A DNA stretch of 64,000 bases from Patescibacteria group bacterium. GTDB lineage: Bacteria; Patescibacteriota; Minisyncoccia; Moranbacterales; UBA2206. The notes beneath the pieces were generated by a model that had not been told where the DNA came from, ran no database searches, and was given only the letters and a program-made list of their open reading frames with translations. Each line of letters starts with the position of its first letter. Positions within the stretch are counted from its first letter, which is position 1. Below are positions 26,124-40,297 of this stretch, one piece after another. The stretch spans positions 10,592-74,591 of the forward strand of contig JAKLFF010000004.1 of NCBI GenBank assembly GCA_022711335.1, given 5' to 3'. The position numbers and the translations under genes are program-made.

Positions 26124-26990
26124 TTAATCATTTAGATTATTCTTATATAATCTCTTTGCAGTCTCGACTGTATTTTTCATCAGCATCGCCACCGTCATCG
26201 GCCCAACGCCTCCTGGAACCGGAGTGATCGCGCTGGCAATTTCTTTCACGTTTTCAAAGTCCGCGTCTCCAACTAATTTTCCATTCGATAATCTATTCAT
26301 CCCGACGTCCACAACCACAACTCCCTTTTTTATCATGTCTTTTTTAATCAGTCCAGCTTTGCCGACCGCAGTAACTAAAATATCCGCTCTTTTTGTAATT
26401 TCTCCTAAATTTTCTGTTTTTATATGAGCCACTATGACTGTCGCGTTCTCTTCGAGAAACATCATCGCCATCGGCTTTCCGACAATATTGCTCTTTCCCG
26501 CAACCACGCATTCCCTTCCTGAAATTTCGATATTATTTCTTTTTAATATTTCCATAATTCCTGCTGGAGTGCACGGTAATAATTTTCCAATACCGATAGA
26601 CAGTTTTCCAACATTTTCCGGGTGAAAACAATCCACGTCTTTCTTAGGATCAATTGATTCAATAATTTTTCCTTCATCAATATGTTTTGGGAGAGGCAGC
26701 TGCACCAGAATTCCATGAGTTTTTTCATCCGCATTTAGTTTTTGAATCAGTTTCAATAATTCTTCTTCCGTTGTACATTCCGGCATCTCAAAAACCTGGG
26801 AATTAATTTCCATTTCCTCGCAAGCTTTCTTTTTGTTATCTACATAAATCTTTGAAGCCGGATCATCGCCAACGAGTATTACAACCAAGCCCGGAGCTAT
26901 TCCGGTTTTTTTAAGCTGCGCTATTTCTATTTTCAGCTCTTCCTTGATTTCAGAGGCTAATTTTTTCCCGTCTAATATTTTTGCGCTCAT
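26124..26990 (-). CDS. folD: Bifunctional methylene-THF dehydrogenase/cyclohydrolase
   Basis: ...GLVVILVGDDPASKIYV..., ...HGILVQLPLP... Confidence 0.85.
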   Translation of the reverse strand: MSAKILDGKKLASEIKEELKIEIAQLKKTGIAPGLVVILVGDDPASKIYVDNKKKACEEMEINSQVFEMPECTTEEELLKLIQKLNADEKTHGILVQLPLPKHIDEGKIIESIDPKKDVDCFHPENVGKLSIGIGKLLPCTPAGIMEILKRNNIEISGRECVVAGKSNIVGKPMAMMFLEENATVIVAHIKTENLGEITKRADILVTAVGKAGLIKKDMIKKGVVVVDVGMNRLSNGKLVGDADFENVKEIASAITPVPGGVGPMTVAMLMKNTVETAKRLYKNNLND

Positions 26991-27041
26991 AATCCTATGC
27001 TAACTTTAATTCTATCTTTTGTCTAGAAAAAAACCTCATTC

Positions 27042-27116
27042 GTCCCGCTTCGCGGAACAACTTCTCCTTAGTAAAGGAGAAGGTTAAACTTTTCCCTCTC
27101 CTTGGCAAGGAGAGGG
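27042..27116. repeat. GC-rich multi-hairpin element (same family as 26067..26118)
   Basis: CCGC-TTC-GCGG; CTTCTCCTT-AGTAA-AGGAGAAG; CCCTCTCCTT-GGC-AAGGAGAGGG. Confidence 0.5.
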
Positions 27117-27135
27117 TAGGGTGAGGTTACAGCAT

Positions 27136-27164
27136 TTGACAGATTTCGATAGGCATGCTATATA
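27136..27164 (+). promoter_or_regulatory. Consensus sigma70-type promoter driving the GC-rich noncoding region
   Basis: TTGACA, 17-bp spacer, TATATA. Confidence 0.55.
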
Positions 27165-27169
27165 AAATA

Positions 27170-27702
27170 CACATTTAAAAAAGAGGCGACGGTGTCCGGC
27201 GGCGTTTCAGCGCCAAAGGAAGAATTGGAAAAACCCAATCGCAAGGAGAGGAGAAATGGGCGTTATTGTGTCTTGTTCCAAATGGAAAATTTATAATAAT
27301 ACAGTCACCGTCCCGGCCACCTGCAACCGCAACACCGGCTGAGCGACCCGTGGGCGCCCGCCAGACTGACGATGTCTGGCTAGTCAGCCCTGGGAAATGG
27401 CCGTAGTGTAACCGCCGTCCGCGCCCCCTCCGAGCAAGCCTCGGACCAGTCCACAAGGGACATTGGGCGCGGCCGGCACACACAGCATTTGCCCGCCATC
27501 GTCTGCGCGGGCAGAAAGGACAAATATGCGCCGCATACCCTTTTCAGGGTTGAGAACCAACGTCTCAGCGACGCAACCGGATGTCTGCAATCCAGACTCT
27601 AGTCCCGTGAATAGGCCCCGCTCCACGGAATTTACGCCACTGGAGCCGCCACGAATTTAGGACGTATTAGGGACGCAGTCTGATTGCAGACGTCACCCAG
27701 CA
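27170..27702 (+). ncRNA. Candidate structured noncoding RNA of unknown class (about 450-570 nt, about 60% GC)
   Basis: No ORF over 102 aa in any frame; many local hairpins; bracketed by a consensus promoter and a strong intrinsic terminator; GC content far above the flanking DNA. Confidence 0.45.
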
Positions 27703-27741
27703 GAGCCCAAGAGTTCTCAACTCTCGGGCTCATTTTTTTTA
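27703..27741 (+). terminator. Intrinsic terminator
   Basis: GAGCCCAAGAG...CTCTCGGGCTC hairpin followed by a T8 run. Confidence 0.75.
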
Positions 27742-27750
27742 TCAAAAAAC

Positions 27751-27780
27751 TTGCTAATTTGTAATAATTAGTGATATAAT
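27751..27780 (+). promoter_or_regulatory. Promoter of rarA
   Basis: TTGCTA, 18-bp spacer, TATAAT. Confidence 0.5.
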
Positions 27781-27796
27781 ATCACTATCTTTATGT

Positions 27797-27846
27797 CATT
27801 CCCGCGAAAGCCTGCCTGTCCGGTAGGCAGGCAGGAATCTAGTTAT
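27797..27846 (+). promoter_or_regulatory. Hairpin-A-like leader element (partial copy of the two-hairpin motif, with an inserted sub-hairpin)
   Basis: GTCATTCCCGCGAAAGC[CTGCCTGTCCGGTAGGCAGGCAG]GAATCTAG directly upstream of the rarA ATG. Confidence 0.4.
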
Positions 27847-29043
27847 ATGAATACTTCCCCTCTCGCCGATCGAATCCGCCCCCAGACTCTCAATGAATTC
27901 TTCGGCCAGAAAAAACTAATCAGCAAAAATTCCTATCTCCAAAACGCGATTGAAAATGACCGCGTACCTTCAATGATTTTTTGGGGTCCGCCCGGATCGG
28001 GAAAAACAACTCTTGCCCAAATTATCGCCAACCTTACGAAGTCCGACTTCATAAAACTTTCCGCGGTTTCATCCGGCAAAAAACAACTGGTAGAAATTGT
28101 TGAAAAAGCGAAAGAAAATATAAAAATTAAAAAGAAAACTATTCTTTTTATCGATGAAATTCATCGTTGGAACAAAGCTCAGCAGGACGCTCTTCTTCCC
28201 TACGTTGAAAACGGAACTATCATTCTCATCGGCGCCACCACTGAAAATCCCAGTTTTGAAGTCATTGGCGCTCTCATTTCTCGCGCTCGGGTTTTTGTTT
28301 TGGAAAAATTGGAAAAAGAAGATATTGAAAAAATCTTAAAGCGTGCAATTAGCATTGTAGGGAACGCACATGTGCGTTCCGAAAAAAAAATAAAAATCTC
28401 CGAAGACACTATTAGGTTGATTTCCAATCTTTCCAATGGCGATGCCCGCATGGCGCTAAACACCCTGGAAGCTTTGATCAACGCAAACAAAAATATAACT
28501 GAAAAACTCGTCAAAGAAATTCTCCAAAAAACCCATCTGCTTTATGATAAAACCGGCGAAGAGCATTATAATATTATTTCCGCCCTCCACAAATCCATGC
28601 GCGGAGGCGATGCCAATGCCGCTCTCTATTGGCTCGCTCGCATGATTGAAGGTGGCGAAGATCCGCTCTACATTGCCCGAAGGTTAGTTCGATTCGCTTC
28701 CGAAGACATTGGCCTTGCCAATAACACTGCCTTAATTTTAGCCAATGCTGTTTTTGATGCTTGTCACAAGCTGGGTTACCCAGAATGCAATGTCCATCTG
28801 GCTCAATGCGTCATTTATCTTTCTAAATCCAAAAAGGACGTAACCGCCTACCTGGCTTATGAAAAAGCCAAGAAAGATGTGACTGATTTTGGCAATCTTC
28901 CTATCCCCTTCCACATCAGGAACGCTCCGACAAAACTGATGAAAGAATTGGGATATGGAAAAAATTACAAATACACGCCTCTTGAAGACAGCTCAGATCA
29001 AACTTACCTTCCGAATAAACTGAAAAACAAAAAATACATATAA
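27847..29043 (+). CDS. rarA: Replication-associated recombination protein A (AAA+ ATPase)
   Basis: GPPGSGKTTLAQIIA Walker A and MgsA-type C-terminal domain; the track ORF start at 27793 is created by an ATG inside the repeat. Confidence 0.85.
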   Translation: MNTSPLADRIRPQTLNEFFGQKKLISKNSYLQNAIENDRVPSMIFWGPPGSGKTTLAQIIANLTKSDFIKLSAVSSGKKQLVEIVEKAKENIKIKKKTILFIDEIHRWNKAQQDALLPYVENGTIILIGATTENPSFEVIGALISRARVFVLEKLEKEDIEKILKRAISIVGNAHVRSEKKIKISEDTIRLISNLSNGDARMALNTLEALINANKNITEKLVKEILQKTHLLYDKTGEEHYNIISALHKSMRGGDANAALYWLARMIEGGEDPLYIARRLVRFASEDIGLANNTALILANAVFDACHKLGYPECNVHLAQCVIYLSKSKKDVTAYLAYEKAKKDVTDFGNLPIPFHIRNAPTKLMKELGYGKNYKYTPLEDSSDQTYLPNKLKNKKYI

Positions 29044-35477: not shown

Positions 35478-37334
35478 ATGAATTATATTTACTGTTTTTG
35501 GAGTAAACTCAAAATAAAACCAGATATTTGGTTTTTTTATGGATTTTTATTAACTTTTACTTTTAGTATCCGGAAAGTACTGTTTTACTTTCCAATTAAA
35601 GGAACTTTTAATGAATATACCGGAATATACGTTTATATTTCCGATATTTTTTTATTTTTCACGATGTTATCGTGGATTATACTCATATTATCCAATAAAA
35701 ACATTTATTTGTCAAACTGTAAGTTGTGGATAACTCAACTTATACACAGTTTATATTGTAAAATAGCCCTAGAATTAAAGTTTATTTTTTTTAATCGTTC
35801 AATTAACCTACCAAATAATTATTATGAAAATAGTTCAACTGATAAAGTCTCTAAATGTTCTACACATGCCTTATTACTTTCAAATGTTTCGTCTCTTGAA
35901 AAATGTTCCACGTGGAACATTACATGGAACAAACATGGTATATTCATCATTATTCCATTAGTCATTGTAATATGGTCATTTATATCAATCATATGGTCGT
36001 CTAATCAAACCATAGCTGTTTTTAGATCTATCAAACTTTTTGAGTATTTTTTGTTATATTCATATATTGCATTTAGACTTGTTCCATTTATTAAATCAAA
36101 AGTATGTTCCACATTTGCTTCACAAATTGTTCCACGTGGAACAATTTTTATGGGATGGAATAGTATAATGGTGATTATTATAATAATTGGCTTATTTCAG
36201 TCAATAATTGGAATCATCCACTTCATTGATCAACACTCAATTGGCCTTTTTTGGCTTAAAGAAAGCATAATTTCACCTGATATCGCTGGCGTAGCCAAAA
36301 TTGTTATAAATGGCCAGAAATATATCAGGGCCTATGGCCTATTTCCTCATCCCAATATTCTGGGTGGATTTTTGTTGTTTTCAATTATCATTACACTCAT
36401 GTATTACAGAATGTTCCATGCTTGCCGTGTAACATCTAATTGTTCTACGCCTGCCCCGTTTAATGTTCCACGTGGAACAATTCTCAATTCCCTTATCCTC
36501 GTCCAATCCATCGCATTTTTTTTAACATTTTCTAAATCAGCCATTCTGGGACTGACAATTTCCCTGTTTTATATGTATATTGCTCCTCATCTGGTTAGTG
36601 CGACTAAAATGTTCCACCCCATAAAACTTCAAAATGTTCCACATGGAACAATTGGAAGTAATGGGGCAGGCGTGGAACATTTCAAATCCCTAGACAGTAA
36701 AATGTCTTTAAATAATATAAAGCATGATCGTAATTTAAGAATTGCGTTATTAATATTTCTCATAATTATTCTGACTTTCTATCTATCATGGACAACCGTT
36801 GACTCAATGATCCGAAACTCAATTGAACAGCGTATAATCTATCTCAATGTTTCACGTGGAACAATATTGGCCAATCCAGTTCTTGGCATTGGAATGGGCC
36901 AATTCGTTCCCAATATGCAAAAATATACCGCTAATCTTGAACTATGGCAATTTCAGCCTGTTCATAACGTATTTTTACTAATTTGGTCAGAGTTGGGGAT
37001 AGTTGGATTAGGCTTTTTTACATATTGGATGTACAAAATGTTCCACATGAAACACAAAACCCTCTCTCCTTTACAAGGAGAGGGCTGGGATGAGGTAAAT
37101 AAGGTTACAAGCGAAACAAATGATAGGGAAGTAGCTAATTCTGATAAATCTATATTACAAAATAAAAGCAATTCTTTGTCAAGTGGTATAACCCTTCGGT
37201 ATTTTAAGGCAATTCTTCTTGGATTCATTTTTATAATGCTTTTTGACCACTATTTTTGGGATATCCAGCAGGGGAATATCATGCTTTGGATGACGATGGG
37301 ATTTATTGCTGGATTGAATAAAAATATTACATAA
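35478..37334 (+). CDS. O-antigen ligase (Wzy_C/WaaL-like) family membrane protein carrying multiple in-frame palindrome insertions
   Basis: Polytopic; ...YGLFPHPNILGG..., ...QPVHNVFLLIWSELGIVGL...; frame intact across 618 codons. Confidence 0.55.
   Translation: MNYIYCFWSKLKIKPDIWFFYGFLLTFTFSIRKVLFYFPIKGTFNEYTGIYVYISDIFLFFTMLSWIILILSNKNIYLSNCKLWITQLIHSLYCKIALELKFIFFNRSINLPNNYYENSSTDKVSKCSTHALLLSNVSSLEKCSTWNITWNKHGIFIIIPLVIVIWSFISIIWSSNQTIAVFRSIKLFEYFLLYSYIAFRLVPFIKSKVCSTFASQIVPRGTIFMGWNSIMVIIIIIGLFQSIIGIIHFIDQHSIGLFWLKESIISPDIAGVAKIVINGQKYIRAYGLFPHPNILGGFLLFSIIITLMYYRMFHACRVTSNCSTPAPFNVPRGTILNSLILVQSIAFFLTFSKSAILGLTISLFYMYIAPHLVSATKMFHPIKLQNVPHGTIGSNGAGVEHFKSLDSKMSLNNIKHDRNLRIALLIFLIIILTFYLSWTTVDSMIRNSIEQRIIYLNVSRGTILANPVLGIGMGQFVPNMQKYTANLELWQFQPVHNVFLLIWSELGIVGLGFFTYWMYKMFHMKHKTLSPLQGEGWDEVNKVTSETNDREVANSDKSILQNKSNSLSSGITLRYFKAILLGFIFIMLFDHYFWDIQQGNIMLWMTMGFIAGLNKNIT
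35903..37060. repeat. Array of at least 7 copies of the palindrome (A)ATGTTCCACGTGGAACA(TT), plus half-sites and an associated GCCTGCCCC submotif
   Basis: Perfect copies at 35903..35920, 36125..36146, 36465..36480; near-perfect copies at 36631..36652, 36846..36865, 37036..37056; half-sites at 36104, 36411, 36607, 36671. Confidence 0.8.
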
Positions 37335-37569
37335 AAATATTTTCTAAATTGTTTCCATCTTTTTCCCAGTTAATTGGATTTTTAAAAATATATTCGCGAA
37401 TTTTATTCAATTCAATTTCATTTCGAATGATACGATCATAAAAAGACCGTTGCCAAATATTTGTAATACAGGAAATATTTTTTGATTTCATTAATTGAAT
37501 ATATTCTACGGCTGATTTGGATTTAAACGTTTGGATTATTTTTGATAATAATCCAATTTGATTAGAATT

Positions 37570-37651
37570 TTGTAGGGACAGACCTTATGTCTGTCCTGAA
37601 TTTTTTATTTGTATTTTTTTATTTTGGGCGGACACAAGGTCCGCCCCTACA
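37570..37651. repeat. REPIN/BIME-like 82-bp element, copy L (TIR TTGTAGGG/CCCTACAA, two 8-bp-stem hairpins)
   Basis: GGACAGAC-CTTAT-GTCTGTCC and GGGCGGAC-ACAAG-GTCCGCCC. Confidence 0.6.
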
Positions 37652-37905
37652 TTTCCGATAATCTCTATGATCAAATGAACATGGTTTGGCATTATTATGT
37701 TTTCATCTAAAAATACACTTGGAGAATAATTTGAAACATTATTTAAATTTTTTAAAATAATCTTTCCCACATCATTCAAAACCATTTCTGTATTTTTAAT
37801 TTCACCAAAAAATTCTTCACGATTTTTTGTACAGATGGTAATAAAATACATTCCTTGCTGTGAATAATCATAACTATTGAGGCGATTTAATTTACGGTTT
37901 TTCAT
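37585..37905 (-). pseudogene. Truncated REP-associated tyrosine transposase (RAYT / IS200-like TnpA), N-terminal half only
   Basis: YDYSQQGMYFITICTKNREEFFGEI...MPNHVHLIIEI, then the reading frame runs into the REPIN copy; the catalytic C-terminal Tyr region is missing. Confidence 0.6.
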
Positions 37906-37916
37906 TGGAAATATGG

Positions 37917-38663
37917 CTATTTTACCCTTACCTCCGGCAGATTATCCCAAGCTAACTCAAACATCCACTTTAAAGTATTATTAATCTCCGCGCTTTCAAT
38001 GATCACTGCCATTTGTTCTTTGGAAGAAATAAGCGCGACTTTTTGATGGCCGTACACATCCACTTCCACTGAAAAAGGATATTTATCTTTTTTAATTAGT
38101 TTACAGACTCGCAATTGTTGCTGGTCTCTCGCCACTAATGATTCTTCCAAATATTTTGTTCCCGGAAGAATCGCCCGCACGCGCACGCCCTTCTTCATTC
38201 TTTTTTTGATATACCATTCGATCCAATCTTCACCCAAAACATCTCGGACATCTTCCGAACCAAATGCCAAAATTTCACCGGAATATTTCAGCGCATCGTC
38301 ATATGCTTCCATGAGTCCTTCCTTACCTTCATAAAATCTAATCTTCGGTTTTGTGCCTTTGACGTTGTAGATGGATTTCAACTGCGGAAGGATTTCTTCA
38401 AAAAGGCTTTCTTTTTTTTCAAGGTCTTTTTTTATTTTCTCCGGATCTTCGCCGATGAATAATCTTTTCTTTCCACTAAGCGCCTGAGACACAAGGCCGT
38501 CTTTTTGCAGATCAAGAAGAATGTCATAGGCGGTGGTTCTTTTGATGTTGGCCTTCCGGGATATGTCTATTACCGACGCCCCGCCCAATTCCAAAGCCGC
38601 CAGATATACATCTGCTTTTCGGCCATGGAGGCCAAATTGTTTGAGAATTTGTCGGGTTTCCAT
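37917..38663 (-). CDS. TrmB-family HTH transcriptional regulator (copy 1)
   Basis: N-terminal HTH ...DVYLAALELGGASVIDISRKANIKRTTAYDILLDLQKDGLV... plus a TrmB-like C-terminal domain. Confidence 0.65.
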   Translation of the reverse strand: METRQILKQFGLHGRKADVYLAALELGGASVIDISRKANIKRTTAYDILLDLQKDGLVSQALSGKKRLFIGEDPEKIKKDLEKKESLFEEILPQLKSIYNVKGTKPKIRFYEGKEGLMEAYDDALKYSGEILAFGSEDVRDVLGEDWIEWYIKKRMKKGVRVRAILPGTKYLEESLVARDQQQLRVCKLIKKDKYPFSVEVDVYGHQKVALISSKEQMAVIIESAEINNTLKWMFELAWDNLPEVRVK

Positions 38664-38682
38664 GATAATTATTTTGCAATCT

Positions 38683-38764
38683 TTGTAGGGACAGACCTTG
38701 TGTCTGTCCTGAATTTTTTATTTGTATTTTTTTATTTCGGGCGAACACAAGGTTCGCCCCTACA
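38683..38764. repeat. REPIN/BIME-like 82-bp element, copy R (about 93% identical to copy L, same orientation)
   Basis: Same TIRs and hairpins as copy L. Confidence 0.6.
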
Positions 38765-38884
38765 TTTTGCCCTTATTTTACCATATGACGACATTTTTCG
38801 TCAAATAATAAGATTTTTAATTATCTTTATTTGCCTTTATTTAGCCATTTTATATAATATATTGCAATTTACTTGACGTAGTTC

Positions 38885-38913
38885 TTTGACATTTTTGTCA
38901 TTTGGCTGTATAA
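38885..38913 (+). promoter_or_regulatory. Consensus promoter of the REC-domain gene
   Basis: TTGACA, 17-bp spacer, TATAAT; RBS AAAGGAG. Confidence 0.55.
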
Positions 38914-38992
38914 TTGGCAGTTAAGATGAAAGTTCCAATGAGGAACTGGAATCTTAATAAAAGTTCATTACATTCCAAAAAAGGAGCAAGCT

Positions 38993-39745
38993 ATGAAAAT
39001 AATGATTATTGACGATACCAATGCAAATCTGGAAGCAGCTCGTACGGCTTCGGCTAATTTTTCTGAGCACGAGTTTTCCTTTTTCAGTTCAGCAAAAGAA
39101 GCAGCTGATAAATTGGAAGATTTCGATGCCATAATCTCTGACCTCTTCTTTCCTAATGAGAATCATCATGACGGAAGCAATTTGGATGATTTATATGCAA
39201 TTTATCGTTCGGAAATGGATCATCCTGTCTTCAATGAGATCGTTGATTATTATTATGGTGGCGACTGGAAAAGAGCAAATGGCAAACTCCAGGATGCCGT
39301 AGCATTGCTGGAAGAGGGAACTATTAGAAAAGCTATTGAGAGATTAATCCGTTTCTTCTATGGAAAAGGAGATGCTTGGGGATTAGAAAAAGCAAAGGAA
39401 TATGAAGAAAGATTAGAAAGCCTCCCTGACCAACAATTTCCATACGGAGGCGCCTTGATTTTGGAGGCAAAAAAGGTTGGAAAAGCTTGCTGCCTAGTGT
39501 CGGATATTCATCGCCATGCCGGAGAATATAAAGATGCAGTAGGAGCCATTGATGCCATGACTCTGCTCATACCTCTTATGGGTGCTGGCATCGTTACGAT
39601 TGAACAAGCGCAATATGATGGAAAAAATAGTTTGACATACATAGGCAATGATGAGCTGTATAAGACTGCGGGCAGTCAGAAAAAGAATTCTCCGAAAGTA
39701 TGGGTAGAAGCAATTAAAAGAGTTCTTTCTCAAATTGACCACTAA
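38993..39745 (+). CDS. Orphan REC (CheY-like receiver) domain protein with an uncharacterised C-terminal domain (copy 1)
   Basis: MKIMIIDD...DAIISDLFFPNE... receiver fold; the C-terminal domain is shared with the 46473..47156 product. Confidence 0.55.
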   Translation: MKIMIIDDTNANLEAARTASANFSEHEFSFFSSAKEAADKLEDFDAIISDLFFPNENHHDGSNLDDLYAIYRSEMDHPVFNEIVDYYYGGDWKRANGKLQDAVALLEEGTIRKAIERLIRFFYGKGDAWGLEKAKEYEERLESLPDQQFPYGGALILEAKKVGKACCLVSDIHRHAGEYKDAVGAIDAMTLLIPLMGAGIVTIEQAQYDGKNSLTYIGNDELYKTAGSQKKNSPKVWVEAIKRVLSQIDH

Positions 39746-39886
39746 AGGTTTCCGGGAAGTTTATCCTTGCTTATCAAGGCAAAAAACTTCCCAATTTTAT
39801 TGAGTTTTTCTTGAATAGGTCAAGGAAGATTCATTGAATGAAGGTTCTTTGAAATTACTCACATTACAAATTATAAAGGAGCAATT

Positions 39887-40141
39887 ATGTGGTATGAAAT
39901 TCATTTTTTTAGGTATGAGTTTGAGTATGCGGAACCTGTACTGTCAGAAGTTCTTTTTTTTAAATCAAGAAAGGAGTTAGAAAAATATCTCGATGGAATG
40001 ATTTCTGGCAATATGGTTTTTGGAGTGGATACTCTCAGTTTCTATGCAGGCACAATTTACCAATTGTGCAGAAATGGAGTAAAAAGAAAAATTGAAAAAT
40101 TCCGTAACAATGTTTACAAAAAATATCCAGATTGGTACTAA
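39887..40141 (+). CDS. Hypothetical protein (84 aa)
   Basis: Strong RBS AAAGGAG; no motif recognised. Confidence 0.4.
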   Translation: MWYEIHFFRYEFEYAEPVLSEVLFFKSRKELEKYLDGMISGNMVFGVDTLSFYAGTIYQLCRNGVKRKIEKFRNNVYKKYPDWY

Positions 40142-40210
40142 CTTTAAAGACTTGAGCTACGTCTATAAACTGGCTCTTTTTATTTGTAAATCGGCTTTTT
40201 TATTTTTTAT

Positions 40211-40242
40211 ATAAACAAAAAAGACGCCCCATTGGAGCGTCT
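40211..40242 (-). terminator. Intrinsic terminator downstream of gyrA
   Basis: On the minus strand, AGACGC-TCCAATGGG-GCGTCT hairpin followed by a T6 run. Confidence 0.65.
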
Positions 40243-40264
40243 CTACAAAATATCTTTTGACTGG

Positions 40265-40284
40265 ATTCCCGCTTTCGCGGGAAT
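40265..40284 (-). promoter_or_regulatory. Isolated hairpin A of the two-hairpin motif (perfect ATTCCCGC-GAAA-GCGGGAAT), 13 nt after the gyrA stop
   Basis: The minus strand reads TTTGTCATTCCCGCGAAAGCGGGAATCCAG. Confidence 0.45.
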
Positions 40285-40297
40285 GACAAAATAAATT

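Follow-up and report, generated by a model that had tools for sequence, protein, structure and literature searches.

A 64,000-nucleotide stretch of DNA from a Candidatus Moranbacteria genome (Patescibacteria; contig JAKLFF010000004.1, positions 10,592 to 74,591), which will be referred to below as the window, carries a gene resembling a REP-associated tyrosine transposase (RAYT, also called TnpA-REP, where REP stands for repetitive extragenic palindromic sequence). The open reading frame (ORF) called for this gene ends inside a short repeat, and a second copy of this repeat is present on the far side of the neighbouring trmB-family regulator gene. The question raised by this locus is whether the gene is the truncated remnant of a mobile element or whether the repeat is a part of the gene itself. 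We consider it likely that the locus is a REPtron of the kind described as TnpA-REP subclass 2.4 (Quentin, Siguier, Chandler and Fichant, 2018, BMC Genomics 19:475, PMC6006769), which is equivalent to RAYT group 4 (Bertels et al., 2017, PMC5581495), present here in a member of the candidate phyla radiation (CPR), with the mechanism and the history presented below.

The RAYT gene and the hairpins in its reading frame

The 106-aa ORF called by the gene finder (37585..37905, minus strand) is present, along with the N-terminal motifs quoted in the first-pass annotation, and stops at a premature TAA. According to that annotation, the gene lacks its catalytic C-terminus and the frame runs into a repeat instead. 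Downstream of the internal TAA, however, the same frame reads on through LMKSKNISCITNIWQRSFYDRIIRNEIELNKIREYIFKNPINWEKD. The complete RAYT/TnpA-REP frame (37327..37905, minus strand, 193 codons including the terminal stop) encodes, apart from this single internal TAA, a protein of 192 amino acids in which the HUH motif is followed by the entire repeat, read in frame, and by the helix carrying the catalytic tyrosine, WQRSFYDRIIRNE; the single-frame translation is ...MPNHVHLIIEIIGN-VGADLVSAQNKKIQIKNSGQT*GLSLQ-NSNQIGLLSKIIQTFKSKSAVEYIQLMKSKNISCITNIWQRSFYDRIIRNEIELNKIREYIFKNPINWEKDGNNLENIFM*. The catalytic-tyrosine helix is borne by a second ORF of 54 aa (37327..37491, minus strand), which shares its frame with the N-terminal ORF, and it is here that the Pfam and NCBIfam matches fall. 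The Pfam family Y1_Tnp (PF01797) was matched at residues 120-174 of the read-through protein, with 30 bits versus a cut-off of 23 bits. In a tblastn comparison between the window and the intact homologue P0002, a single high-scoring segment pair was obtained over 37905..37330 (193 aa, 70% identity, E 9e-85), and no second RAYT was detected in the 64-kb window with an intact homologue as the query. The catalytic C-terminus is thus present, and the repeat is an in-frame part of the ORF which is found throughout the family. The public records split this gene into two unrelated small ORFs, an annotation trap which is corrected here. The N-terminal fragment (P0018) is labelled "glucose-6-phosphate dehydrogenase" in an NCBI record, which is a misannotation, and the 54-aa C-terminal fragment is a separate, anonymous gene call in public assemblies.

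The HUH motif region MPNHVHL (residues 72-78; 37672..37692, minus strand) fits the NH[IFV]H pattern of subclass 2.4 (PMC6006769), and M72, N74, H75, and H77 are invariant in an alignment of 40 homologous sequences (alignment A1). The segment WQRSFYD (residues 150-156; 37438..37458, minus strand) includes the putative catalytic Tyr155. Its W and Q do not vary at all in alignment A3 and hardly vary in A1, and it aligns with WQPRFWEH of the Escherichia coli TnpA-REP (PDB 4ER8). The latter structure was also the sole match obtained when the family profile was compared with the PDB (E 8.5e-6). The fold was analyzed on P0002, in place of the window protein. The AlphaFold2 model of this protein has a mean pLDDT (the predicted local distance difference test score) of 81.6, with values above 90 in the core and below 50 at the REPIN-encoded residues 91-110 (REPINs being REP doublets), and the top 30 Foldseek matches were all IS200/IS605/TnpA-REP Y1 structures, including 4er8. 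The gene is a RAYT/TnpA-REP-type Y1 HUH transposase: this identity, already proposed in the first-pass annotation, is upheld by the Y1_Tnp match and by the HUH and tyrosine motifs. The embedded element is predicted, on the basis of the model, to encode a disordered loop between the two catalytic halves.

A repeat search of the 64-kb window yielded one family with two copies of 86 bp each, in the same orientation, which are 95% identical (82/86). The first copy (37569..37654, no strand assigned) lies inside the gene and is translated in the RAYT frame to (N)VGADLVSAQNKKIQIKNSGQT*GLSLQ(N), and the second one is extragenic (38682..38767, no strand assigned). The same-orientation pair described previously as 82-bp elements is therefore present as 86-bp units, and its interpretation as a REP doublet was borne out by the anatomy of both copies: each of them consists of two inverted units, GTAG followed by an 8-bp stem with a 5-nt loop, on either side of a 29-nt A/T spacer. 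In the in-gene copy, the type-B unit GTAGGGGCGGACCTTGTGTCCGCCC (37626..37650, minus strand) opens the linker on the coding strand, and the type-A unit GTAGGGACAGACCTTATGTCTGTCC (37572..37596, plus strand) closes it on the non-coding strand. The extragenic copy contains a type-A unit with the loop CTTGT (38685..38709, plus strand) and a type-B variant, GTAGGGGCGAACCTTGTGTTCGCCC (38739..38763, minus strand). The copies differ at four positions: a base in a loop, a base in the spacer, and two bases of the second stem, G>A and C>T, which compensate each other, so that GGGCGGAC/GTCCGCCC in the gene corresponds to GGGCGAAC/GTTCGCCC outside it, pairing being retained. Four GTAG + 8-bp-stem units were counted in the 64-kb window with a degenerate pattern, versus 0.00 expected from 100 shuffles. 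When folded as single-stranded DNA (ssDNA), each copy forms two separate hairpins on either strand (z = -6.4 to -7.4), and no Rfam family was matched at the repeats at the gathering threshold in a search of the whole window, where tRNAs were the sole matches. Both REPs and the 29-nt spacer are common to the two copies, the only doublets in the 64-kb window, which is in keeping with the copying as a unit that characterizes REPINs.

The presence of such hairpins in the reading frame is a feature of the whole family. A database search yielded 4532 homologues at E < 1e-5, and most of the best 120 are full length. In all the full-length homologues aligned (170-235 aa), a variable linker separates the HUH strand from the tyrosine helix, and in most of the aligned members it contains the peptides VGADLVSA...GQTQGLSLQ (CPR) or VGADLRVCP...GEH(T/I)GSPL (other phyla). 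Covarying linker variants such as VGTDLASV occur in alignment A1, and tandem duplications of the linker were observed in P0104 and on comparing P0015 with P0016. The valine of the Val-Gly pair encoded by GTAGGG (V86) is kept in at least 90% of the family members. At the DNA level, a convergent pair of GTAG hairpins was found in the linker of all the homologous genes checked (8/8), the stems being of several compensated types. Where the residues are identical, codon identity amounts to 80% in the REP codons versus 59% elsewhere, and the GC content is 0.54-0.65 in the REP codons versus 0.24-0.38 in the rest of the gene. With a purine/pyrimidine pattern leaving three stem pairs free, 139 of the 151 matches listed were fully Watson-Crick paired, versus about 19 expected. 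The hairpin pair is conserved in frame across the family, and the constraint on these hairpins acts at the nucleotide level. The recent insertion of a miniature inverted-repeat transposable element into an empty gene was ruled out, since the orthologues have a homologous in-frame doublet and spacer.

The premature stop, the trmB-RAYT-wzy locus and other REP units

The 5-nt loop closing the type-A hairpin contains the premature TAA (37587-37585, minus strand), which corresponds to a C>T change in the coding strand at an unpaired loop base, the codon being CAA (Gln) in the extragenic copy, in the sister strain L007, and in the homologues. A total of 18 contigs, originating from several JGI and ENA samples, encode the exact 106-aa product (P0018), and in the six TAA-bearing contigs that were fetched, both the RAYT and trmB are 100% identical to those of the window; the TAA is therefore not a sequencing error. 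An alternative genetic code was rejected because the terminal stop of the gene is itself a TAA. When these six contigs were compared for selection since the TAA arose, they showed no variation in the RAYT or in trmB.

In the sister strain (L007/L008), the codon at this position is CAA, but a 2-bp insertion further downstream shifts the frame: two independent lesions are present in two sister lineages. Between the window and the L007 lineage, the ratio of nonsynonymous to synonymous substitution rates (dN/dS) is 0.063 in the RAYT (dS 0.23) and 0.065 in the neighbouring trmB. A ratio this low, and equal to that of trmB, marks both lesions as young compared with the split between the two lineages: they cover no more than a few percent of the time elapsed since then, and the inactivation is very recent. 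In the 28 REPIN codons, the stop is the sole substitution separating the window from L007, and the flanking dS ranges from 0.13 to 0.6; the hairpin region changes less rapidly than synonymous sites do. As a single polypeptide, the product of the gene is presumably nonfunctional in this genome, which amounts to a probable loss of function. The term "degenerate" applied to this RAYT in the first-pass annotation is justified in the sense of a very recent pseudogene differing by one codon, and not in that of a truncated gene, since the frame is full length with a single nonsense codon.

The trmB-family regulator gene (37917..38663, minus strand; Pfam TrmB, E 4e-10) is located 11 nt upstream of the RAYT start and is probably its operon partner. 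A promoter-like site matching the consensus, TTGACG-18-TG-TAAAAT (38775..38804, minus strand), lies upstream of the extragenic REPIN, so that a trmB-RAYT transcript would probably include this REPIN in its 5' leader. The two copies had been said to bracket trmB precisely. They do enclose it, but since the first copy lies within the RAYT gene, the 5' 254 bp of the latter are enclosed as well. The in-gene doublet has an A/T spacer homologous to those found within the genes of the orthologues L186 and L138, and the spacer of the extragenic copy is nearly identical to it. On the simplest reading of these sequences, the extragenic copy would have arisen by duplication of the complete in-gene unit, at a time preceding the separation of the sister lineages. 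The spacer of the extragenic copy is shorter by 23 nt in L007, owing to a loss which has spared both hairpins; a central deletion of this kind has been proposed as the origin of the double-foot REPs (Quentin et al., PMC6006769).

The order TrmB-RAYT-Wzy_C is kept in the sister strains and in a related species. The contig of a related genome carrying an intact RAYT of 177 aa (P0026) is syntenic with the window locus, the common order being Lactamase_B, gyrA, a variable segment, TrmB(248), RAYT, Wzy_C, NMO ... PolyA_pol, YjbQ. The trmB-RAYT-wzy locus is thus vertically inherited, and the RAYT is a domesticated gene at a fixed position, represented by one locus in the window. Such vertical inheritance accounts for the locus better than the idea that a fossil mobile element has landed beside a TrmB module, and the upstream copy is best seen as a local daughter of the in-gene copy. 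The case for a functional link between TrmB and RAYT was judged too weak: the TrmB paralogue present near the 70%-identical RAYT in L186 is differently arranged and 30% identical.

The interval between trmB and gyrA (38768-40297) is a strain-variable island bounded by the extragenic REPIN. It contains one 250-aa ORF and one 84-aa ORF in the window, an AbiEii toxin gene and several small ORFs in L007/L008 (L007 3588-8356) and in the P0026 contig, and other content in L185 (174-1502), where a lone type-A REP adjoins gyrA. The 250-aa ORF (38993-39745, plus strand), which had been taken for the REC partner of trmB, lacks any Pfam match at E <= 0.01, and a promoter-like site with a perfect consensus, TTGACA-17-TATAAT, is present upstream of it (38886-38914). 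At the other end of the locus, a "double-foot" palindrome, GTAGGGAATAAAAATTTTTTATTCCCTAC, directly follows the RAYT stop codon in L007 (9754-9782) and is absent from the window.

The linkers of the intact syntenic orthologues P0024 and P0026 carry another type of REP, type C, in which GTAGGGAACGCACATGTGCGTTCC encodes VGNAHVRS at the start of the linker; in P0026, the inverted partner unit (QERMYAFPT) is described just before the WQ motif. The window gene was compared with P0024, using the shorter P0024 contigs at the DNA level. The amino acid identity amounts to 61% in the 84 N-terminal residues (1-84), where the DNA similarity is intermediate; it falls to 21% in the linker (85-112) and 27% in the middle part (113-149), with low DNA similarity in both, and rises to 93% in the 43 C-terminal residues (150-192), the DNA being highly similar from the WQ motif into the downstream flank. 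This mosaic pattern suggests that recombination may have occurred, with break points near the embedded REPs. A third GTAG hairpin in the window (28357..28380, plus strand) consists of the same type-C unit as that of the P0024 and P0026 linkers and is likewise translated as VGNAHVRS, in frame in an MgsA/RarA-like gene (27793..29043). This gene encodes a replication-associated ATPase. The start of its ORF (27793-27845) reads MSFPRKPACPVGRQESS and is encoded by a palindromic element, TTCCCGCGAAAGCCTGCCTGTCCGGTAGGCAGGCAGGAATC; strings similar to it (SFPRKRESS, AGRQAG) are present upstream of trmB in the strain variant L185 (140-420), and this palindrome appears to belong to another dispersed family of palindromic elements.

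REP units of these types are distributed well beyond the window. A scan of a genome collection with a loop-free REP pattern returned at least 120 genome stretches, from other phyla, and among the 151 REP matches listed, 52 correspond to the 25-mer GTAGGGGCGAACCTTGTGTTCGCCC, loop included. In these listed matches, the 25-mer occurs in Armatimonadota, Desulfobacterota, Deinococcota, Acidobacteriota, Chloroflexota, Planctomycetota, Bacteroidota, Gemmatimonadota, and Gammaproteobacteria, and it is also identical in one archaeal (Promethearchaeota) metagenome-assembled genome. It is often found in head-to-head dimers, and the identity of a REP across phyla is striking. The exact type-A unit was found in at least 57 stretches of a metagenome collection, which is incomplete, as L001, L004, and L008, known carriers of the unit, were not returned. 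A classic REPtron from a high-GC organism (L146) has arrays of six and five type-A units flanking a RAYT. Of 13 dispersed type-A/B units or doublets checked in low-GC, CPR-like contigs, 7 are embedded in frame in long ORFs of 279-790 aa (L148, L144, L173, L176, L161, L140, and L162), nearly always in the VG(A/T)DL(V/A)S(A/V) frame. Around the CPR homologue genes, few further copies or none occur within +/-10 kb. Other copies of the element and intact RAYTs, such as P0026 and the homologues mentioned above, do therefore exist, and the attribution of the repeat to a RAYT system withstood this check.

Palindromes of other kinds were observed in the window. The ORF of the O-antigen-polymerase-like Wzy_C protein (35478-37334, plus strand, 618 aa, versus 574 aa in its syntenic ortholog) contains six copies of a 16-nt palindrome, TGTTCCACGTGGAACA, with 0-2 mismatches, at 35904, 36128, 36464, 36635, 36848, and 37039. 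Being translated in frame but in different phases, they encode the peptides CSTWNI, NVPRGTI, and MFHVEQ, and the whole window contains nine matches, versus 0.1 expected by chance. They would seem to form a second family of palindromes inserted in frame. A GC-rich non-coding island (27290-27735, plus strand), located upstream of the MgsA-like gene, ends with a clean stem-loop and a T-run, and its RNA fold has a z-score of -7.5 versus shuffles. No Rfam family was matched by this island at the gathering threshold in the whole window or at E <= 1 in 26900-27800, and no tRNA or tmRNA was found in it; it is a candidate for an unclassified structured RNA of about 430 nt.

Proposed mechanism and alternative explanations

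In the mechanism proposed here, a Y1 HUH ssDNA endonuclease/ligase would carry, as members of subclass 2.4 usually do, its own cognate pair of inverted GTAG-REPs in frame, in a disordered linker separating the HUH strand from the catalytic-tyrosine helix. By analogy with the E. coli TnpA-REP (PMC3333891, PMC3479197), from which any activity on these REPs would have to be extrapolated, the enzyme would bind the folded REP on ssDNA, read the 5' GTAG, and cut and rejoin the strand, dispersing doublets. A single copying event would have transferred the whole doublet with its spacer from the gene over a distance of 1.1 kb, to what is now the probable 5' leader of trmB-RAYT. Very recently, the C>T change at the unpaired loop base turned CAA into TAA, cutting the protein between its two catalytic halves, and the sister lineage lost the frame independently via the 2-bp insertion.

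Some of the observations might be explained otherwise. The fact that the called ORF is just 106 aa long and ends inside the repeat, and that the copies do sit on either side of trmB, would agree with a C-terminally truncated RAYT fossil whose frame reads into a non-autonomous element of 82 bp, trmB having come to be flanked by two such elements through transposition. The truncation is refuted, however, by the catalytic C-terminal part present in the same frame; the repeat occupies the same position, in frame, in intact homologues, and thus cannot be a disrupting insertion, and the first copy is inside the gene rather than beside it. We regard this explanation as very unlikely. Even less credence can be given to the idea that the linker peptides (VGADLVSA, GQTQGLSL) have been selected as protein, the DNA hairpins and the dispersed copies being by-products. 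These peptides are certainly kept across many homologues, but their amino acids covary as base pairing demands (A..SA with T..SV), and their codons are conserved beyond synonymous expectation and strongly GC-shifted in an AT-rich gene. In addition, the segment which they form is predicted to be disordered, and the same units are found outside genes as well as within unrelated ones, where they occur in different frames and on either strand.

The most probable of the alternatives, although we consider it unlikely, is that of a functional enzyme in two pieces, consisting of an N-terminal HUH fragment (106 aa, or 139 aa in the sister strain) and a 54-aa tyrosine-helix fragment translated separately from a conserved Met (37491). 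The two might reassemble non-covalently, which the trans-assembled active sites of the IS608-type Y1 dimer suggest to be sterically possible. Both independent lesions do fall between the HUH and tyrosine parts, the 54-aa ORF beginning with MKSKN is intact in both lineages, the upstream stop in L007 overlaps the ATG of this ORF (ATGA), and dN/dS is as low as in trmB in both parts (0.05 N-terminal, 0.03 C-terminal). On the other hand, nearly all of the best 120 homologues are single full-length proteins, and the E. coli TnpA-REP is monomeric (PMC6006769). The TAA allele has accumulated no variation and is therefore just young, which leads one to expect a low dN/dS anyway, and streamlined genomes delete old pseudogenes, leaving only young ones visible.

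The reading of the locus as a recently inactivated subclass 2.4 REPtron has points against it as well. The low dN/dS in both halves and the location of the two lesions are equally to be expected of a two-piece enzyme; the activity of any subclass 2.4 member is deduced by analogy with the E. coli TnpA-REP; and the promoter and the operon structure are read from consensus matches only. The copy counts of REPINs and RAYTs are those of the 64-kb window, and further REPINs or a second, active RAYT may be present in the source genome. Lastly, the match with the NCBIfam model NF047646 (REP_Tyr_transpos; 66 bits, E 3e-18) falls below the 80-bit cut-off; it is broken into two stretches by the linker insertion, and NF047646 is still the top NCBIfam model, the next one, transpos_IS200, scoring 25 bits.

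A further idea can be put forward tentatively, although it seems to us doubtful: the in-gene REP pair might be a heritable master copy rather than a tolerated passenger, ensuring the co-inheritance and co-evolution of the enzyme and its target, and seeding extragenic copies. The gene-to-leader copy would then be an example of such seeding, and the cost would be a built-in mutational weak point, in the form of a loop codon which is unpaired and which a single transition can turn into a stop. The stop in the hairpin loop illustrates a specific cost of having a structured element within a coding sequence. In addition, the intact, nonsense, and frameshift states of one syntenic locus, with little divergence between them, provide a natural experiment on whether REPIN decay follows the loss of the RAYT.

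Comparison with known systems

In the REPtron of E. coli (Ton-Hoang et al., 2012, PMC3333891; Messing et al., 2012, PDB 4ER8, PMC3479197), the Y1 HUH fold, the GTAG at the foot of the REP hairpin, and the inverted REP pairs are the same as those described here. The E. coli enzyme belongs, however, to subclass 2.2; its REPs, which have bulged stems, flank the gene and none are present inside it, and its sequence similarity to the window family is marginal (the E-value of 8.5e-6 having been obtained with a profile). In the REPIN-RAYT system of Pseudomonas (Bertels and Rainey, 2011, PMC3116915), two inverted REPs and their spacer are likewise copied as a unit, and the RAYT is likewise present in a single copy and vertically inherited. 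The Pseudomonas REPINs differ in that they are extragenic, number hundreds per genome, and form one long hairpin, whereas in the window each REP folds alone, the copies are few, and one of them is part of an ORF.

In-frame palindromes in genes which are still functional are also known from the Rickettsia palindromic elements (RPEs) and the intragenic REPs (Di Nocera et al., 2013, PMC3733652), which resemble those present in the MgsA-like gene of the window and in the long ORFs of other low-GC contigs. The RPEs have no known dedicated transposase, whereas the gene hosting the insertion here is the cognate transposase itself. The IS200/IS605 elements (the TnpA of IS608 and ISDra2) have in common with the window gene the fold, the catalytic motifs, and the subterminal hairpins recognized on ssDNA, but they are mobile and multicopy, with hairpins at the ends of the element, in contrast with the window gene, which is fixed at a syntenic chromosomal position.

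The closest resemblance is that with subclass 2.4, where REP sequences have been described between the HUH and tyrosine motifs of tnpA-REP genes without any disruption of the frame, together with an insertion domain that varies greatly, "double foot" REPs, the motifs NH[IFV]H / WQ / YIxNNP, and a length of about 194 aa (PMC6006769). With its motifs NHVH, WQ, and YIFKNP and its 192 aa, the window gene appears to fit subclass 2.4 / RAYT group 4 when compared with Table 1 of PMC6006769 by motifs and length, and by its in-frame REPs; its homologues have YIxNNP or YIxxNP. The features in common include the NHVH form of the HUH motif, the WQ before the tyrosine, the YIxxNP after it, a length of about 190 aa, and an insertion of variable length consisting of in-frame REPs; long GTAG REPs with G-C pairs at the base of the stem, and "double foot" forms in relatives; and a single gene copy which is vertically inherited. 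The window gene differs from subclass 2.4 as described in its CPR/Patescibacteria host and in the nonsense codon inside the embedded hairpin, and also in that the sole other doublet within 64 kb would be a local daughter of the in-gene doublet, instead of the REP arrays flanking the gene. The terms "Patescibacteria" and "candidate phyla" are absent from the main text of PMC6006769, and neither RAYT nor TnpAREP is mentioned in any of the 10 papers which a literature search combining these names with CPR terms listed. The arrangement of the gene is a known peculiarity of subclass 2.4, of which the window gene is a new, freshly dead member from the CPR; the observation published in 2018 on REPs embedded in tnpA-REP genes is thereby extended to the ultra-small genomes of the CPR.

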